Of a stretch of 10,664 nt of DNA, positions 1,313 through 10,414 are shown one piece after another. Position numbers and translations under genes: made by a program. Origin of the DNA: a virus (lineage: Duplodnaviria > Heunggongvirae > Uroviricota > Caudoviricetes); IMG/VR virus record IMGVR_UViG_2667527789_000015; one strand, given 5' to 3'. The notes under the pieces were generated by a model. The model worked only from the letters and a program-made list of their open reading frames with translations, was not told the DNA's origin and did no database searches. Numbering within the stretch: the first letter of the stretch is position 1; every line of letters begins with the position of its first letter.

Positions 1313-3793
1313 ATGTTGAGAATGACCCCACTTGCATCAGCAATCGTAGCGTTATTGCTCGGCATTGAAGCTTATGCAGCTGAAGAAGCCTTTGATACCC
1401 ATTTTATGATAGGTGGAATGAAAGACCAGCAGGTTGCAAATATTCGTCTTGATGATAATCAACCCTTACCGGGGCAGTATGACATCGATATTTATGTCAA
1501 TAAGCAATGGCGCGGGAAATATGAGATTATTGTTAAAGACAACCCGCAAGAAACATGTTTATCAATAGAAGTTATCAAGCGGTTAGGCATTAATAGCGAT
1601 AACTTCGCCAGCGGTAAGCAATGTTTAACATTTGAGCAACTTGTTCAGGGTGGGAGCTATACCTGGGATATCGGGGTTTTTCGTCTCGATTTCAGTGTCC
1701 CGCAGGCCTGGGTGGAAGAACTGGAAAGTGGCTATGTTCCACCGGAAAACTGGGAGCGGGGTATTAATGCGTTTTATACCTCTTATTATGTGAGTCAGTA
1801 TTACAGTGACTATAAAGCGTCGGGTAATAGTAAGAGTACATATGTACGTTTTAACAGCGGGTTAAATTTACTGGGGTGGCAACTGCATTCTGATGCCAGT
1901 TTCAGTAAAACAAATAACAATCCAGGGGTGTGGAAAAGCAATACCCTGTATCTGGAACGTGGATTTGCCCAACTTCTCGGCACGCTTCGCGTGGGTGATA
2001 TGTACACATCAAGCGATATTTTTGATTCTGTTCGCTTCAGCGGTGTGCGGTTGTTTCGTGATATGCAGATGTTGCCTAACTCGAAACAAAATTTTACGCC
2101 ACGGGTGCAGGGGATTGCTCAGAGTAATGCGCTGGTAACTATTGAACAGAACGGTTTTGTGGTTTATCAGAAAGAGGTTCCTCCTGGCCCGTTCGCGATT
2201 GCAGATTTGCAGTTGGCCGGTGGTGGAGCAGATCTTGATGTCAGCGTGAAAGAGGCGGACGGCTCGGTAACCACCTATCTGGTGCCTTATGCAGCAGTGC
2301 CAAATATGCTGCAACCCGGCGTATCGAAATATGATTTTGCGGCGGGTCGTAGCCATATTGAAGGGGCGAGCAAACAAAGTGATTTTGTCCAGGCGGGTTA
2401 TCAGTATGGTTTTAATAATTTATTGACGCTGTATGGTGGCTCGATGGTCGCGAATAATTATTACGCGTTTACTTTGGGGACTGGCTGGAATACACGCATT
2501 GGTGCCATTTCCGTCGATGCCACGAAGTCGCATAGTAAACAAGACAACGGCGATGTGTTTGACGGGCAAAGTTATCAAATTGCCTACAACAAATTTGTGA
2601 GCCAAACGTCGACGCGTTTTGGTCTGGCGGCCTGGCGTTATTCATCGCGTGATTACCGGACATTTAATGATCACGTTTGGGCAAACAATAAAGATAATTA
2701 TCGCCGTGATGAAAACGATGTCTATGACATTGCCGATTATTACCAGAACGATTTTGGCCGTAAAAATAGCTTCTCTGCCAATATGAGCCAGTCATTGCCA
2801 GAAGGCTGGGGGTCTGTGTCCTTAAGTACGTTATGGCGAGATTACTGGGGGCGTAGCGGCAGCAGTAAGGATTATCAGTTGAGTTATTCCAATAACTGGC
2901 GGCGGATAAGCTATATCCTCGCGGCAAGCCAGGCGTATGACGAGAATCATCATGAAGAGAAACGTTTTAATATTTTTATATCGATTCCCTTTGATTGGGG
3001 TGATGACGTTACGACGCCTCGTCGGCAAATATATATGTCTAACTCAACGACGTTTGATGATCAGGGGTTTGCCTCAAATAATACGGGATTATCAGGAACC
3101 GTTGGAAGCCGGGATCAGTTTAACTATGGGGTCAACCTGAGTTATCAGAATCAGGGAAATGAAACGACAGCTGGGGCGAATTTGACCTGGAACGCGCCGG
3201 TTGCGACAGTGAATGGCAGTTATAGTCAGTCGAGTACTTATCGACAGGCTGGAGCCAGTGTTTCAGGGGGCATTGTCGCCTGGTCGGGGGGCGTTAATCT
3301 GGCGAACCGTCTTTCAGAAACGTTTGCTGTGATGAATGCGCCAGGAATTAAAGATGCTTATGTCAATGGGCAAAAATATCGCACAACAAACCGTAATGGA
3401 GTGGTGGTATACGACGGAATGACACCTTATCGGGAAAATCACCTGATGCTGGATGTGTCGCAAAGCGATAGCGAAGCAGAATTACGTGGCAACCGGAAAA
3501 TTGCCGCCCCTTATCGCGGCGCGGTTGTACTGGTTAATTTTGATACCGATCAGCGCAAGCCCTGGTTTATAAAAGCGTTAAGAGCGGATGGGCAACCATT
3601 AATGTTTGGTTATGAAGTCAATGATATCCATGGTCATAATATTGGCGTTGTCGGTCAGGGAAGCCAGTTATTTATTCGCACCAATGAAGTACCGCCATCG
3701 GTTAATGTAGCAATTGATAAGCAACAAGGACTTTCATGCACAATCACCTTCGGTAAAGAGATTGATGAAAGTAGAAACTATATTTGCCAGTAA
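1313..3793 (+). CDS. yehB: Outer-membrane fimbrial usher (FimD/PapC family), YehB-like
   Basis: About 826-aa ORF with a signal peptide (MLRMTPLASAIVALLLGIEAYA), a long beta-barrel-like Tyr/Asn/Ser/Gly-rich body and a C-terminal Cys pair typical of ushers. ATG at 1313 is preceded by AGGAG at 1302-1306; the ORF-track start at 1298 is a TTG immediately after the chaperone stop and is less likely. Confidence 0.88.
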   Translation: MLRMTPLASAIVALLLGIEAYAAEEAFDTHFMIGGMKDQQVANIRLDDNQPLPGQYDIDIYVNKQWRGKYEIIVKDNPQETCLSIEVIKRLGINSDNFASGKQCLTFEQLVQGGSYTWDIGVFRLDFSVPQAWVEELESGYVPPENWERGINAFYTSYYVSQYYSDYKASGNSKSTYVRFNSGLNLLGWQLHSDASFSKTNNNPGVWKSNTLYLERGFAQLLGTLRVGDMYTSSDIFDSVRFSGVRLFRDMQMLPNSKQNFTPRVQGIAQSNALVTIEQNGFVVYQKEVPPGPFAIADLQLAGGGADLDVSVKEADGSVTTYLVPYAAVPNMLQPGVSKYDFAAGRSHIEGASKQSDFVQAGYQYGFNNLLTLYGGSMVANNYYAFTLGTGWNTRIGAISVDATKSHSKQDNGDVFDGQSYQIAYNKFVSQTSTRFGLAAWRYSSRDYRTFNDHVWANNKDNYRRDENDVYDIADYYQNDFGRKNSFSANMSQSLPEGWGSVSLSTLWRDYWGRSGSSKDYQLSYSNNWRRISYILAASQAYDENHHEEKRFNIFISIPFDWGDDVTTPRRQIYMSNSTTFDDQGFASNNTGLSGTVGSRDQFNYGVNLSYQNQGNETTAGANLTWNAPVATVNGSYSQSSTYRQAGASVSGGIVAWSGGVNLANRLSETFAVMNAPGIKDAYVNGQKYRTTNRNGVVVYDGMTPYRENHLMLDVSQSDSEAELRGNRKIAAPYRGAVVLVNFDTDQRKPWFIKALRADGQPLMFGYEVNDIHGHNIGVVGQGSQLFIRTNEVPPSVNVAIDKQQGLSCTITFGKEIDESRNYICQ

Positions 3794-3806: not shown

Positions 3807-4841
3807 ATGAATATTCGTATAATGTTATTTATAGTAATGATGATGGTTATGCCTGTGAGCTATGCGGCATGTTATAGTGAGTTATCTGTTCAGCACAATT
3901 TGGTTGTTCAGGGGGATTTTGCACTTACTCAAACACAAATGGCGACATATGAGCATAATTTTAATGATTCGTCATGCGTGAGTACAAATACTATCACCCC
4001 TATGAGCCCGTCGGATATTATTGTTGGACTTTATAACGATACCATTAAATTAAATTTACATTTTGAATGGACCAATAAAAACAACATCACGTTATCAAAT
4101 AATCAGACCAGTTTCACCAGTGGTTATTCGGTAACGGTGACACCTGCGGCCAGTAATGCAAAAGTGAATGTTTCTGCGGGGGGCGGCGGTTCAGTGATGA
4201 TTAATGGAGTTGCGACATTATCCAGTGCTTCATCATCGACACGCGGGAGTGCCGCAGTACAATTTCTACTGTGTTTATTAGGTGGCAAGTCATGGGATGC
4301 ATGTGTAAATAGCTACAGAAATGCATTGGCACAAAATGCAGGTGTCTATTCCTTTAATCTGACATTGTCATACAACCCGATAACCACAACCTGCAAACCG
4401 GACGATTTATTAATTACTTTAGACAGTATTCCCGTTTCACAATTACCAGCCACAGGTAACAAAGCAACAATAAATAGTAAACAAGGGGATATTATTCTGC
4501 GTTGTAAAAATTTATTAGGTCAACAAAATCAAACATCACGGAAAATGCAGGTGTATTTATCAAGTTCTGACTTGTTAACCAACAGCAACACAATACTGAA
4601 AGGTGCGGAAGATAATGGCGTAGGATTTATTCTTGAAAGTAATGGTTCGTCAGTCACACTTTTAAATATCACTAACAGCAGTAAAGGATACACAAATTTA
4701 AAAGAAATTGCGGCAAAGTCAAAACTTACAGATACAACGGTTTCAATTCCGATAACTGCCAGTTACTACGTCTACGATACAAACAAAGTTAAATCTGGCG
4801 CACTGGAGGCAACCGCATTAATCAACGTGAAATACGACTAA
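3807..4841 (+). CDS. yehA: Fimbrial tip/adhesin-like subunit, YehA-like
   Basis: ORF in the last operon position with a signal peptide (MNIRIMLFIVMMMVMPVSYA) and a Ser/Thr/Asn-rich mature region with several Cys. The ATG at 3807 gives 344 aa; the upstream part of ORF-track 3714..4841 overlaps the usher 3' end and is probably not translated. Confidence 0.75.
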   Translation: MNIRIMLFIVMMMVMPVSYAACYSELSVQHNLVVQGDFALTQTQMATYEHNFNDSSCVSTNTITPMSPSDIIVGLYNDTIKLNLHFEWTNKNNITLSNNQTSFTSGYSVTVTPAASNAKVNVSAGGGGSVMINGVATLSSASSSTRGSAAVQFLLCLLGGKSWDACVNSYRNALAQNAGVYSFNLTLSYNPITTTCKPDDLLITLDSIPVSQLPATGNKATINSKQGDIILRCKNLLGQQNQTSRKMQVYLSSSDLLTNSNTILKGAEDNGVGFILESNGSSVTLLNITNSSKGYTNLKEIAAKSKLTDTTVSIPITASYYVYDTNKVKSGALEATALINVKYD

Positions 4842-7026: not shown

Positions 7027-8247
7027 GTGGGAAAAGCACTAAACAAACTGAGCGATTCGACGTTAAAAAAATTGGCGGCTGTCCAGGCAGAAAAAGAGCG
7101 TTTTTACTCCGACGGGGGCGGGCTGGAGATTAAACACTCAAAAGGCGGCAAATTAACCTGGTATTTTCGGTACCGAACGGGAGGCCGTGAGGTCGCCGCA
7201 GAGCGGTTAAAGCTGGGGGCTTACCCTGAGCTGTCGCTGAAAGCTGCTAGGGAAAAACGCACACAGTGCCGGTCATGGCTGGCTGAGGGTAAAAATCCCC
7301 GTTATGAGTTGTGCGCCACAGTACAGGAAGCATTAAAACCCGTTACGGTGAAGGAGGCGATTAACTACTGGCTGGAGGAATACGCGAAGGATAATCGCAA
7401 AGACTACATAAAACTGGTGCAACGTATGGATAAGCACATCATTTGCCATATAGGGGCAATCCCTCTTGATAAATGCGATACAAGGCAGTGGATCGCATGT
7501 TTTGACCGTGTACGAAAAAAAGCACCAGTAGCAGCAGGGCACGTCATGCAAACCTGCAAACAGGCGCTAAAGTTCTGCCGCAGGAGGCGCTACGCGTTCA
7601 GTAATGCCCTGGACGATTTGATCGTCAGCGATGTGGGTAAGAGAGCAGAAATTCGCGAGAGGGTACACAGTAACAGCGAATTAAAGGAAATTTTACGCGC
7701 TATCGATGGTGATGTGTTCGCGCCTTACTACAGCACGTTAATGCGCTTGCTGATTGTGTTCGGGTGCAGAACGGCAGAGGTCAGACTTTCAGAGATCAAA
7801 GAATGGGATCTGAAAGAAATGTTGTGGACAGTGCCAAAAGAGCACAGCAAAACGAAGGTAACGATATTCAGGCCAATCCCCGATGGCATTTTGCCGTTCA
7901 TTCAGAAGCTGGTGGAGCAGAACCGACATACAGGGTTATTGCTCGGAGAACTGAAAAAAGATACCACGGTAGCGCAATATGGGCGAAATGCGCATAAGCG
8001 GCTTAACCAGGAACACTGGACGCTGCATGACTTTCGCCACACGTTTACAACGATGCTGAACGATTTAGGTATCGATCCGCATATCGTGGAGCACATCACA
8101 GCGCATCAGATGCCCGGTCAGCAAAAAACCTATAACCATTCACGCTATTTACAGGCGAAACGGGACGCTCTGAATCTATGGGTTGAGCGTCTCGATGTGC
8201 TGGCTGGAAATCATGAAAATATTGTTATGCTGAAGGTGGCTAAATGA
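7027..8247 (+). CDS. int: Tyrosine site-specific integrase, P4-type (phage integrase family)
   Basis: 406-aa ORF with a GTG start and AAGAGG 10 nt upstream. N-terminal arm-binding-like region (LKKLAAV...GGGLEIKHSKGGKLTWYFRYR) and C-terminal catalytic signatures (FGCRTAEV box I Arg, HDFRHTF H-x-x-R, KTYNHSRY Tyr region) typical of tyrosine recombinases. Confidence 0.9.
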   Translation: MGKALNKLSDSTLKKLAAVQAEKERFYSDGGGLEIKHSKGGKLTWYFRYRTGGREVAAERLKLGAYPELSLKAAREKRTQCRSWLAEGKNPRYELCATVQEALKPVTVKEAINYWLEEYAKDNRKDYIKLVQRMDKHIICHIGAIPLDKCDTRQWIACFDRVRKKAPVAAGHVMQTCKQALKFCRRRRYAFSNALDDLIVSDVGKRAEIRERVHSNSELKEILRAIDGDVFAPYYSTLMRLLIVFGCRTAEVRLSEIKEWDLKEMLWTVPKEHSKTKVTIFRPIPDGILPFIQKLVEQNRHTGLLLGELKKDTTVAQYGRNAHKRLNQEHWTLHDFRHTFTTMLNDLGIDPHIVEHITAHQMPGQQKTYNHSRYLQAKRDALNLWVERLDVLAGNHENIVMLKVAK

Positions 8248-9038
8248 AAGATTTTCCTCGTATATATTATACTTTGCCTATGGCAGCAAAAAAACTCGGC
8301 TGCACGGTGGATGATATTCTACATCTTGGGGCAACCAATAGACTTGAAATATGTGCATATATTGGTGAAAACGACTTATTAATAAGTGAGAATAAGTGCT
8401 CTGCTAGAGTGATTTTTGAAGATGATAGCGAAAGTTATTATGTTGAACAGATAAAAGAACGAAATGTAATAGATAGTGATATGTATAAGATATCTTATCT
8501 TCATTACAATGATGATTATGTTGAGGATACCGACACAGGGATATTCAGACTGCCAGGTTGGTATGCAAATTATTTAAAGGGTTTTTTTGCAATTCCGTCG
8601 CAGTATCTTGTGGATGTTGAATTATCAGGTCCGCACAATGCTGTTGACGTCAAACCACAACATCTTTACACCATAAAAGCACATTACAAAAAGCTATATT
8701 TAGCTGGAATTTGGGGGTTGTTTATTCCGGAGGAAAGATTAGTCGTTTTCGAAAATGAACTTTCGAATTTTGATTATGCGGCAAAACCTGTATATGGCGG
8801 AGGTGATAGAGAATCTCCGAAAACCATAGCTAAAAAAGCCGAGATAATACCTGCACTCATAAAACTGATTCCTGAGATGCAGGATGTGGATTTGGAGGAG
8901 ACACCAGTAACCAAAATTGCAGAAATGATAGAGGTTATCGCTGCGCAAAGAGGGGTTGAGCTACCCAGCACTCACAGGCAGACATGGCAGAAATATTTGG
9001 GGCGTGATATTGGTGACGTTCCGAAACGTCAAAAGTGA
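8244..9038 (+). CDS. Hypothetical 264-aa protein, AT-rich cargo gene; N-terminus resembles an excisionase/MerR-type HTH, C-terminal domain unknown
   Basis: ATG at 8244 overlaps the integrase TGA (ATGA, 8244-8247) with AGGTGG upstream, indicating translational coupling. Composition is visibly more AT-rich than the flanking integrase. N-terminal TLPMAAKKLGCTVDDILHLGATNRLEI resembles HTH_17/excisionase helix-turn-helix patterns by eye; no catalytic motif recognised in the rest. Confidence 0.65.
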   Translation: MKDFPRIYYTLPMAAKKLGCTVDDILHLGATNRLEICAYIGENDLLISENKCSARVIFEDDSESYYVEQIKERNVIDSDMYKISYLHYNDDYVEDTDTGIFRLPGWYANYLKGFFAIPSQYLVDVELSGPHNAVDVKPQHLYTIKAHYKKLYLAGIWGLFIPEERLVVFENELSNFDYAAKPVYGGGDRESPKTIAKKAEIIPALIKLIPEMQDVDLEETPVTKIAEMIEVIAAQRGVELPSTHRQTWQKYLGRDIGDVPKRQK

Positions 9039-9066
9039 TATCACGTACCGATAGTGTGATATCACA
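9034..9066. promoter_or_regulatory. Pair of perfect 10-bp palindromes GTGATATCAC (12-bp with flanks), centres 21 bp apart; putative operator
   Basis: Seen directly: GTGATATCAC at 9035-9044 (overlapping the ORF264 TGA stop) and at 9056-9065. Two helical turns between centres is typical of dimeric HTH repressor operators. Confidence 0.5.
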
Positions 9067-9094
9067 CAAACGGCGTTTTACCACCGTCTAGAAT

Positions 9095-9129
9095 CGTCCT
9101 CGTTCGGCAACGTTCGAGGACGTTTTTTT
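9095..9129 (+). terminator. Hairpin plus T7 run; intrinsic terminator after int-ORF264 and/or leader attenuator of the AlpA-family gene
   Basis: Seen directly: CGTCCTCG at 9095-9102 pairs with CGAGGACG at 9115-9122 (8 bp, 12-nt loop), then TTTTTTT at 9123-9129 immediately before the ATG at 9130. The GAGGA at 9117-9121 that would serve as the alpA Shine-Dalgarno lies in the 3' arm of the stem. Confidence 0.5.
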
Positions 9130-9354
9130 ATGAATCAAAATACACAATTTCAATCACTATCAGATCGCGTAATCCGTGAGGATGAATGTCGTAAGTTAAC
9201 TGGAGTATGTCGTACTACACGCTACGAACTGGAGAAAAAAGGGCGATTTCCGTCACGCCTTAATCTGGGCGGTCGTTCTGTAGGTTGGCTGCTGTCCGAG
9301 GTTATGGAATGGGTTAAAAGCCGGGATCGCATTAATTCAGGTAAGGCAGCGTAA
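9130..9354 (+). CDS. alpA: AlpA-family phage transcriptional regulator / excisionase-like DNA-binding protein
   Basis: 74-aa ORF with the family pattern: basic region, HTH (LTGVCRTTRYELEKKGRFPSRLNLGGRSVGW) and acidic/W tail (SEVMEWV). Position just downstream of a P4-type integrase is typical. Confidence 0.75.
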   Translation: MNQNTQFQSLSDRVIREDECRKLTGVCRTTRYELEKKGRFPSRLNLGGRSVGWLLSEVMEWVKSRDRINSGKAA

Positions 9355-9367
9355 AGGGGAGCATATG

Positions 9368-9401
9368 ACACATAAAACAAAGGCGACCGGGGGCGGTCGC
9401 C
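9368..9401 (-). terminator. Hairpin GGCGACCG-GGGG-CGGTCGCC with T-rich tail on the minus strand; terminator for the minus-strand gene 9490..9792
   Basis: Seen directly: perfect 8-bp GC-rich inverted repeat at 9382-9401; on the minus strand it is followed by TTGTTTTAT (complement of 9373-9381). Confidence 0.45.
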
Positions 9402-9489
9402 AATGGGAAAACACTAAACATAAGCCCGAACATCATAGCGATTTGCTGGCTGGTGGGCAATGTGATCAGTGTGGTGGTTTGCTGGTGGA

Positions 9490-9792
9490 TTATTCCGCTT
9501 CTTTGGCCTTGCGACGCTGGAGTTCTTCGCGTGCAACGGTGACAAGTTGCCCGATTTCTTCCGCTGCTTTGATGCCGATTTGTTCGACCTTAGCCAGAGC
9601 ATCCAGTGAAGACACAAGGGGATTTTCTCCGCTGCCTTCTGCCTGGCGGCGTGCTATTTCTCCGCGCATGGCGGTTACGATAAATCCTGCATTGCTCTCG
9701 CCGTCCAGCTTAACGGATTCCATGCCTTGCATGACATCGTGAGGGACTCTGAGCGTTGTCATTTGAGATTTTGCGTTTTTGTATACGGACAT
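9490..9792 (-). CDS. Hypothetical ribbon-helix-helix-like DNA-binding protein (putative repressor), 100 aa
   Basis: Minus-strand ORF with a plausible protein composition. Residues 12-45 (TTLRVPHDVMQGMESVKLDGESNAGFIVTAMRGEIARR) fit the beta-strand/helix/helix pattern of Arc/CopG-type RHH domains by eye. Divergently transcribed from a repeat-rich promoter region. The overlapping plus-strand ORF 9365..9742 looks like a Ser/Ala-rich shadow frame. Confidence 0.55.
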   Translation of the reverse strand: MSVYKNAKSQMTTLRVPHDVMQGMESVKLDGESNAGFIVTAMRGEIARRQAEGSGENPLVSSLDALAKVEQIGIKAAEEIGQLVTVAREELQRRKAKEAE

Positions 9793-9810
9793 AATTAATC
9801 ACCAGTTTAT

Positions 9811-9913
9811 TGTGTGTATATCACTATACAGTAAAGTGAGATATAAAAAAACTTGAAATGTATATCACATCAATGTAACGTGTATCTCACATGATGATTA
9901 TGTGTATCTCATG
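9811..9913. repeat. Array of GTGTAT(A/C)TCAC repeats (four direct, one inverted) in the divergent promoter region
   Basis: Seen directly: GTGTATATCAC 9814-9824, GTATATCACAT 9860-9870, GTGTATCTCAC 9880-9890, GTGTATCTCAT 9902-9912, and the inverted copy GTGAGATATA 9836-9845. Spacing of about 21-22 bp between the last three. They share the TATCAC half-site with the palindromes at 9035-9065. Confidence 0.5.
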
Positions 9914-9989
9914 TACGAAAAGACGAAACCCCGCAGTGCTGGAACACATACGGGGCTTCTAACCACAAACACTATAGAGAGGTAAATTT

Positions 9990-10184
9990 ATGGTTGCCGT
10001 AAATCATACTCCACGACTAGCACACACACAAACGGCCTTTGTGTGGCGTTTTCTGGCCCTGAGTGCCGGAGAATCTCAAATCATCCACGTAACCGCCTGG
10101 ACGGAACGCGAAGCGCGTAACCGTTGCCCGTCCGGTTGTGTTGCTGTATTTGCCGCCCGTATTCGCCAGGGGGTAGGCTTATGA
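9990..10184 (+). CDS. Small protein resembling Icd-like host cell division inhibitors (P1 Icd / P4 Kil type)
   Basis: 64-aa ORF with GAGAGG Shine-Dalgarno 8 nt upstream. Sequence pattern (HTPRLAHTQTAFVWRFLAL...TEREARNR...VAVFAARIRQG) resembles, from memory, Icd-like proteins annotated in P4-like elements. First gene of the rightward operon. Confidence 0.5.
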   Translation: MVAVNHTPRLAHTQTAFVWRFLALSAGESQIIHVTAWTEREARNRCPSGCVAVFAARIRQGVGL

Positions 10185-10414
10185 GCCAGGAAATCACACT
10201 ACAACAGGCAGCAGAACGCGCCCACCAAATCGAAGTTATTTGCGCACTGGCAGAGGATTACCCTGGCATGATGACCGACAGCGAATCAGGGGCAATCATC
10301 GGCTTACTTAAACGCCTTAGCGGTGAGGTCTGCGTATTCCTGAGCGATGAACAGGAAAGAAGAACGCTTATTTCTAACGAAAAAAAATGCGGAGGGGTAC
10401 ACCATGTGCAATAA
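10181..10414 (+). CDS. Hypothetical small protein (77 aa), translationally coupled to the preceding ORF
   Basis: ATG at 10181 overlaps the upstream TGA (ATGA at 10181-10184). The longer ORF-track start at 10124 lies inside the previous gene. No recognisable family. Confidence 0.45.
   Translation: MSQEITLQQAAERAHQIEVICALAEDYPGMMTDSESGAIIGLLKRLSGEVCVFLSDEQERRTLISNEKKCGGVHHVQ

Follow-up and report, generated by a model that had tools for sequence, protein, structure and literature searches.

The window analysed here, the whole of a 10,664-nucleotide stretch from a Caudoviricetes record of IMG/VR (IMGVR_UViG_2667527789_000015), consists of two parts: a chromosomal part with yeh fimbrial genes, rcnAB and rcnR, followed by the left end of an integrated element. 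A copy of that element, 99.8% identical, lies between rcnR and thiM in Escherichia coli S19-141. RefSeq annotation of the S19-141 copy gives the order: integrase, a hypothetical protein, an AlpA-type regulator, a YlcI/YnfO-family protein on the opposite strand and an Icd-like protein; then small ORFs, DUF4222, a RepA-type helicase, SSB and PerC; finally major capsid, protease, portal and head-completion proteins, HNH and terminase. The annotation thus combines int and alpA with a replication module and the element's own capsid, portal and terminase, with no tail genes, in about 15 kb. Because of this gene order we assign the window, from annotated sequence, to the left end of a capsid-forming PICI-type phage satellite of E. 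coli.

Such elements are common: 1328 of 5426 complete E. coli genomes, about a quarter, contain sequence related to this region. Neither a DNA search with 9790-10190 nor tblastn with the YlcI-like protein found a match in a phage collection; at that search sensitivity, therefore, the module seems to be confined to satellites and islands.

The features considered are collected in the table. The two genes that flank the region of interest are as the original prediction described them, a 100-aa minus-strand ORF and an Icd-like ORF that is the first of a rightward operon. Between integrase and alpA, the 264-aa ORF has no Pfam, PHROG or meaningful NCBIfam match; a homologue occupies the equivalent place in an island of E. 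coli O157:H7 (strain M1300706002, locus L088, 1742-2515). Immediately after alpA, RefSeq records an Icd-like pseudogene fragment (window 9365-9487, equal to 12066-12188 of L001, the 24.9-kb locus that holds the complete island), and the terminator-like hairpin of the YlcI-like gene falls within it. This arrangement suggests that the YlcI gene and its putative operators were inserted as a cassette into an older alpA-icd layout.

Table. Coordinates of genes and predicted regulatory features in the window
Feature	Position	Strand	Remarks
Integrase gene	7027-8247		
264-aa ORF between integrase and alpA	8244-9038		
alpA	9130-9354		Pfam Phage_AlpA, E 2e-16
Terminator-like hairpin and T-run, downstream of YlcI-like gene	9382-9401	minus	
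YlcI/YnfO-family gene, 100 aa, proposed repressor	9490-9792	minus	NCBIfam NF041551, 68 bits
Putative operator site O1	9814-9824	plus	GTGTATATCAC; over predicted start region of leftward promoter; position kept in all long-form lineages
Predicted -10 of leftward promoter P_L	9823-9828	minus	TATAGT; TATACT in relatives
Putative operator site O2, inverted copy	9836-9846	minus	TTATATCTCAC; in predicted leftward promoter spacer
Predicted -35 of rightward promoter P_R	9853-9858	plus	TTGAAA; CTTGAC/CTTGCA in relatives; same offset in all lineages
Putative operator site O3	9858-9868	plus	ATGTATATCAC; abuts predicted -35, fills upstream half of rightward promoter spacer
Predicted -10 of P_R	9876-9881	plus	TAACGT, 17 bp after -35; TAAnnT at same place in relatives
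Putative operator site O4	9880-9890	plus	GTGTATCTCAC; over 3' end of predicted rightward -10 and predicted +1
Putative operator site O5	9902-9912	plus	GTGTATCTCAT; about +15 to +25 of predicted rightward transcript
Predicted SymR-like cis-antisense RNA, ~78 nt	9918-9995	minus	Covers Icd-like ribosome-binding site and start codon
Terminator hairpin of predicted antisense RNA	9925-9959	minus	Followed by U-rich tail
Hairpin 1 of predicted antisense RNA	9961-9995	minus	Anti-Shine-Dalgarno loop
Icd-like gene, first of rightward operon	9990-10184	plus	NCBIfam NF033153, 65 bits; RefSeq annotation of L001
Putative -10 of antisense RNA	10003-10008	minus	TATGAT; 7 nt before predicted +1 at 9995

The repeat array and its conservation

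A search of the window for GTGTATMTCAC with at most one mismatch finds four plus-strand matches (O1, O3, O4 and O5), where chance predicts 0.28 for the whole window; in 200 shuffles a count of four was never reached. The start-to-start distances of these direct copies are 44, 22 and 22 bp. An inverted copy, O2 (GTGAGATATAA, which reads TTATATCTCAC on the other strand), has two mismatches with the TATCTCAC core intact; at 9836-9846 it takes the exact middle of the 44-bp gap, and all five sites share one 22-bp grid. The array of four direct copies and one inverted copy that had been predicted between the divergent genes is therefore real, and so is its phasing, though a figure of about 21-22 bp for three of the copies described too loosely a spacing that is exact for all five.

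Each site occupies an 11-bp frame, GTG-N5-CAC, that is partly palindromic. The 9-mer core TGTATMTCA is confined in the same way: all four exact matches in the window, together with the inverted copy, fall within 9815-9911; elsewhere in the window there are seven scattered one-mismatch matches, about the background number (5.0 expected). The motif search was extended to the complete island, where the L001 locus holds, besides the array, one isolated one-mismatch match and no further copy.

Related islands were collected from E. coli genomes, from IMG/VR (80 loci) and by exact-protein look-ups of diverse homologues, to a total of about 100; the diversity comes from the last two sources, since a profile search of genome contigs with the protein alignment returned two loci only. 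All of these islands have a YlcI-like gene and an Icd-like or related operon transcribed away from each other, with about 190-200 bp between them, and a conserved CTTGA(C/A) is found about 63 nt from the YlcI-like start codon. In every long-form lineage the sites are offset from that start codon by about 24, 46, 68, 90 and 112 nt, and O2 keeps its inverted orientation across the long-form classes where it could be scored. The repeat sequence itself is lineage-specific; what homologous islands conserve is the array as a feature.

Selection on the sites can be seen where the sequences have diverged enough for comparison. Between the window and locus L073, whose YlcI-like proteins are about 46-58% identical, the four sites that can be compared without gaps are 86% identical and the spacers 51%, a signature expected if the sites themselves are under selection.

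The YlcI/YnfO-family protein and its covariation with the repeats

The protein encoded to the left of the array is a member of the YlcI/YnfO family: residues 8-49 score 68 bits against NF041551, a 42-residue N-terminal profile with a curated cut-off of 30, and the RefSeq name agrees. A literature search found no paper that gives a function to YlcI/YnfO and no characterised member of the family; it found nothing relevant on PICIs with ribbon-helix-helix (RHH) proteins, nor on SymR with Icd. A preprint describes the gene that follows alpA as variable, its function unknown (bioRxiv 10.1101/2025.02.11.637232). The putative repressor of the EcCIMP1 paper is a PerC-like protein, unrelated to the YlcI-like gene.

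Several weak hints point to a possible RHH fold. The AlphaFold (AF2) monomer model, built from a 28-sequence alignment with a mean pLDDT of 80, is extended at the N-terminus as far as residue 17, followed by two helices (18-27 and 34-52) and a long third one (58-99); a monomer model cannot show the beta-sheet, and this one looks as an RHH monomer would without its partner strand. A Foldseek search of the PDB with the model returned nothing, and a sequence-profile search of the PDB returned no RHH protein. Pfam PF07704, which we take to belong to the RHH clan, is weakly matched by 22 of the 29 homologues, and UniRef names two of the homologues 'Arc-like DNA binding domain-containing protein'. 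In an hhalign comparison with P22 Arc, KSQMTTLRVP falls on KMPQFNLRWP, with marginal similarity, and M11, T13 and R15 align with Arc Q9, N11 and R13, which are the base-contacting residues in the Arc-operator structure; the same comparison with Mnt gave no informative alignment. A helix-hairpin-helix in the C-terminal half was considered and rejected: residues 47-86 weakly match the HhH of Hef (LDALAKVEQIGIKAAEEI; E 0.014), and AF2 gives one long helix there.

The alignment of the 29 homologues divides the protein. Positions 2-5 and 11-14 are variable; N6, S9, R15, P17 and most of the C-terminal half show little or no variation. The conserved C-terminal half (window 9490-9650) has as candidate roles oligomerisation, contact with the DNA backbone, or a site for a partner.

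The variable positions change together with the repeats. The window protein is 92-93% identical to those of L002-L004, and it differs from them mainly within the first 18 residues (MSVYKNAKSQMTTLRVPH versus MATANKNAKSQLTTVRVPL), that is, in the N-terminal arm and predicted beta-strand (SVY..QMTTLRVPH versus ATAN..QLTTVRVPL); outside that segment one position close to the C-terminus varies, and L002 and L004 have single substitutions. The corresponding repeats are TGTAT(A/C)TCA in the window and TGT(G/A)TTTCA in L002-L004. Eight further beta-strand classes, for about ten in all, each have a motif of their own on the same grid: GTGTGATTCA with KQISIRI, TGGTATTCA with QQLNARF, GTGTAGKCA with QMISTRV and GTGTAAG with QSLTARI, for example. 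A 59-aa short form (strand QTVAARV), which lacks the C-terminal helix, has instead three perfect GTGTTYAACAC palindromes around the same promoter, differently spaced. Pairs of strand and motif recur across genera: KQISIRI is shared by E. coli and Yersinia, QLTTVRV by E. coli and Photorhabdus. The hypervariable positions thus change in step with the repeat motif in an otherwise conserved protein, a correlation in which the lineages are related, with fewer independent events than loci, and in which part of the 'code' depends on small differences, classes a and b being one or two bases apart at each site.

With this covariation added to the individually weak matches of fold and sequence, the best reading of the N-terminal 50 residues is a predicted DNA-binding domain of RHH type (Arc/Mnt/CopG). 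The mosaic structure of the islands is in keeping with a specificity unit: one breakpoint lies inside the YlcI-like gene just after the segment for the N-terminus (about 9782-9792), another at about 9918, before the conserved stem-loop. The breakpoints are sharp: matches to many E. coli islands either run through the YlcI-like gene as far as about 9782 or begin at 9918, and the repeats between are covered by three records only. With breakpoints on either side, the N-terminal codons and the putative operators behave as one cassette that appears to be exchanged separately.

A different view takes the repeats to be bound by AlpA, by the Icd-like protein or by a protein of the helper phage, perhaps one shared with the palindromes upstream of alpA. 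There are reasons to entertain it: the PHROG families matched by the Icd-like protein are labelled 'transcriptional repressor', AlpA activates PICI genes in EcCICFT073 (PMC6092414), and the half-site TATCAC is common to the array and the palindromes. Two perfect GTGATATCAC palindromes are indeed present, 21 bp apart, at 9035-9044 and 9056-9065. Yet each is a 10-bp perfect inverted repeat, in contrast to the 11-bp frame of the sites in the array; they are absent from 20 loci that have the same operator type and nearly the same beta-strand; and they recur, with the leader hairpin and a 95% identical alpA downstream, in the O157:H7 island L088, where both the YlcI/YnfO protein (a 60-aa form) and its putative operators (TGGTACGTACCA palindromes) are unrelated to those of the window. 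The single regulator that had been proposed to coordinate array and palindromes finds no support in this distribution; the palindromes travel, as far as these sequences indicate, with alpA and not with the array. The candidate proteins fare no better: L004 and L005 have identical AlpA-like proteins and different repeats, and each of the three Icd-like start-region classes occurs with several operator classes, so that the two kinds of class are shuffled relative to each other. Binding by another regulator is accordingly a decidedly unlikely account of the repeats.

Some features of these neighbouring segments may be recorded for themselves. After the GTGATATCAC palindromes, a terminator-like hairpin at 9093-9127, followed by seven T residues, lies just before the alpA ATG at 9130, and its 3' arm contains the alpA Shine-Dalgarno sequence (GAGGA). 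The entire leader accompanies alpA in the O157:H7 island as well (L088, 2510-2608) and may be a place where alpA expression is controlled. In L088 the two perfect TGGTACGTACCA palindromes (within 2970-3200) precede the gene for the 60-aa protein, which has the same position as the YlcI-like gene here; the Icd-like ORF called by RefSeq in L088 overlaps that gene.

A predicted antisense RNA over the Icd-like start

Immunity in P1 and P4 suggested another level of action for the repeats, as targets of RNAs of the c4/CI type; pairing within transcripts is a further form of this idea. O5 and part of O4 would be transcribed in the rightward leader; C4 and isrK immunity RNAs are described in the 'Bro zone' of Gram-negative PICIs (PMC10111431); and one relative, the island of E. 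coli 94-3024 (L005), carries both, isrK with 61.8 bits and C4 with 75.4 bits (4201-4277 and 4299-4386), above the Rfam gathering scores. These lie between a YlcI-type operator region and an Icd-like gene, inside an 'ash family' pseudogene, from which it follows that immunity modules of the protein and RNA kinds coexist, by sequence match, in some relatives. To that extent the analogy with P1 and P4 holds; in the window itself, it does not. Rfam searches of the window found neither C4 nor isrK, even at E values up to 1, and the search for a complementary small RNA found no complement or other copy of the repeat in window or island. Three of the sites, O1 to O3, precede the predicted start of the rightward transcript. 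Between classes a and b, sites 4 and 5 have opposite orientations at the same positions, a flip that would be neutral for a symmetric DNA-binding dimer and would alter an RNA; and the plus-strand leader is not unusually structured (z = -1.1). Action of the repeats as RNA is thus extremely improbable. Action on DNA, as sites that a protein encoded by the island would bind, is the most plausible of the levels proposed.

A small RNA of another kind is predicted next to the array. Folded as the minus strand, the 81 nt from 9996 to 9916 form two clean hairpins (-31.7 kcal/mol, z = -5.8). The two-hairpin shape recurs in 32 distinct sequences from at least ten lineages, the minus strand always being the more stable; for the stem-loop at 9925-9959, RNAalifold gives -22.4 kcal/mol on the minus strand versus -11.3 on the plus. 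In an alignment of 13 sequences, four pairs show compensatory changes, and many G-U pairs would be A-C mismatches on the plus strand. The Rfam family SymR (RF01809) matches 9995-9922 with 32.2 bits (E 0.006), below its gathering score of 61, and sub-threshold matches of 26-34 bits are found at the equivalent place in five other lineages. When the region is aligned with symR of E. coli K-12 (54% identity), symE and the Icd-like gene have their start codons in register, and the +1 of symR falls at 9995. A TATGAT, the putative -10, keeps its 7-nt distance from hairpin 1 in all three classes of Icd-like start region.

On the strength of the minus-strand fold, the compensatory and G-U pairs, the SymR match, the shared register and the TATGAT, we propose a SymR-like cis-antisense RNA that would mask the ribosome-binding site of the Icd-like gene; RefSeq does not annotate one, although about a quarter of complete E. 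coli genomes have related sequence. The predicted structure has the parts of SymR: two hairpins antisense to ribosome-binding site and start codon, a start just inside the ORF and an intrinsic terminator. The predicted RNA resembles that of K-12 in size (about 77 nt) and in a predicted +1 that lies 3 nt inside the ORF; the differences are the score, 32 bits against a gathering score of 61, the target, a satellite Icd-like gene in place of the SymE toxin, and the status of the RNA, which in the satellite is a prediction. With the c4 and CI systems of P1 and P4 the region would share the immunity control of an icd-type gene; those RNAs are absent from the window, and the repeats are not their targets. 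The antisense RNA would add another layer of regulation; it has no complementarity to the repeats and does not belong to the array.

Proposed control of two divergent promoters

A scan for consensus sigma-70 promoters called none in the intergenic interval. The promoters P_R and P_L are proposed instead from -35- and -10-like hexamers conserved across lineages, among them TTGAC(G/C) in relatives at the -35 position of P_R; the earlier placement of the repeats in a divergent promoter region, between the RHH-like gene and the Icd-like operon, gains support from them. P_L combines a good -10 with a poor, T-rich -35, and the -10 of P_R is weak. Relative to these elements O3 begins at the last base of the P_R -35 and O4 reaches the predicted +1 (about 9888), O1 lies over the predicted +1 of P_L (near 9816) and O2 in its spacer, and O2 and O3 are mirror-placed around the back-to-back -35 regions. 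As would be expected of operators for RHH repressors, then, five short sites cover predicted -35, -10 and +1 elements of both promoters.

The main conclusion is that the repeats are most likely operators of the adjacent RHH-type YlcI/YnfO protein, to which we assign a probability of about 0.7. The reasons are the 22-bp grid, the conservation of the sites, covariation with this protein and not with AlpA or the Icd-like protein, the hints of fold, and the overlap with the promoters.

It may be asked whether the YlcI-like protein, bound at these sites, would serve chiefly for activation or as a Cro-like switch instead of being the maintenance repressor of the island. Weak promoters often need activators, and AlpA-dependent activation is the only control that has been published (PMC6092414). 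But sites inside spacers and over the start points of both promoters are typical of repression, and no site lies upstream of a -35, the usual position for an activator; we regard this version as unlikely.

Arrays of RHH sites need not control promoters at all: they could be iterons or a partition-type centromere, as for ParR on parC and TraM on sbm, with the protein serving replication, segregation or packaging. Here, however, the sites coincide with -35- and -10-like elements of two divergent promoters in every lineage, and even the 59-aa short form has its three palindromes around the same promoter. By position the repeats do not look like replication iterons: in RefSeq annotation of L001 the helicase/primase genes are 1.5-3 kb downstream. 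The island has no annotated partition ATPase, and the published account of PICIs places their origins after the rep gene (PMC6092414). A role as iterons or centromere is very unlikely on these grounds.

For repression by the YlcI-like protein the following scheme can be drawn, in which we infer promoter positions, binding, oligomeric state, cooperativity and the sign of regulation alike. One RHH dimer would bind each 11-bp site; the 22-bp spacing, two helical turns, would place all dimers on one face of the DNA, and the C-terminal helices could join adjacent dimers, so that some 100 bp would be covered cooperatively. With O3 and O4 occupied (spacer, -10 and +1 of P_R), and O5 just downstream, the Icd-like/replication operon would be off; with O1 and O2 occupied (+1 and spacer of P_L), the repressor gene's own promoter would be off as well. 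Occupancy of these promoter elements would thus both shut off the early operon and make the repressor autoregulated. The N-terminal arm, the beta-strand and the operators would together form an exchangeable specificity, or 'immunity', cassette.

The nearest precedents are Arc and Mnt of phage P22, small RHH proteins in which an N-terminal arm and a beta-strand read the bases. In P22 immI the operator lies between and over the divergent promoters Pant and Pmnt, and one protein represses both and autoregulates. The resemblance here consists of the alignment with the base-contacting residues of Arc and of sites placed between divergent promoters. The differences are substantial: Arc binds one 21-bp operator as a tetramer, in contrast to five sites at 22-bp spacing; Arc has no counterpart of the 50-residue C-terminal helix; and the marginal similarity does not reach membership at the level of Pfam. 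Other RHH proteins act on repeat arrays, omega of the inc18 plasmid pSM19035 on heptads, ParR of R1 on parC and TraM of F-like plasmids on sbm sites, and serve copy control, partition and transfer. Their repeats are contiguous or otherwise spaced, unlike those of the window, which have 11-bp non-conserved spacers and sit on promoter elements of a phage satellite.

In genetic layout the closest likeness is to the Gram-positive PICIs (SaPIs), where the gene for Stl or Rpr is leftward and divergent from the excision/replication operon and both promoters are controlled (PMC6092414). Stl proteins, however, are large HTH repressors relieved by helper-phage proteins, in contrast to the RHH-type protein of 100 aa predicted here. 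For Gram-negative PICIs, AlpA is described as an activator and no repressor has been reported, its very existence being called unclear (PMC6092414). The kind of switch envisaged is thus an ordinary, conventional one; it has not been described before for these islands.

A wider proposal can be offered tentatively, and we would sooner bet against it as a whole than for it. It supposes that the YlcI/YnfO RHH protein is the missing maintenance repressor of many Gram-negative PICIs and cf-PICIs; that the cassette defines at least ten immunity types; that the C-terminal helix is the point at which helper phage or AlpA-dependent expression lifts repression; that the SymR-like RNA is a second lock on the Icd-like gene; and that the chromosomal symE/symR control region shares ancestry with the satellite module.

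Phage-inducible islands of Gram-negative bacteria are common, and they mobilise virulence and defence genes. A repressor with a readable operator code would give the YlcI/YnfO family a function. If the protein is such a repressor, the variable gene downstream of alpA would be explained as an immunity determinant and cross-repression among islands would become predictable; natural specificity swaps, such as M11L with the change of TAT to TGT, would then be available for the study of RHH-DNA recognition.
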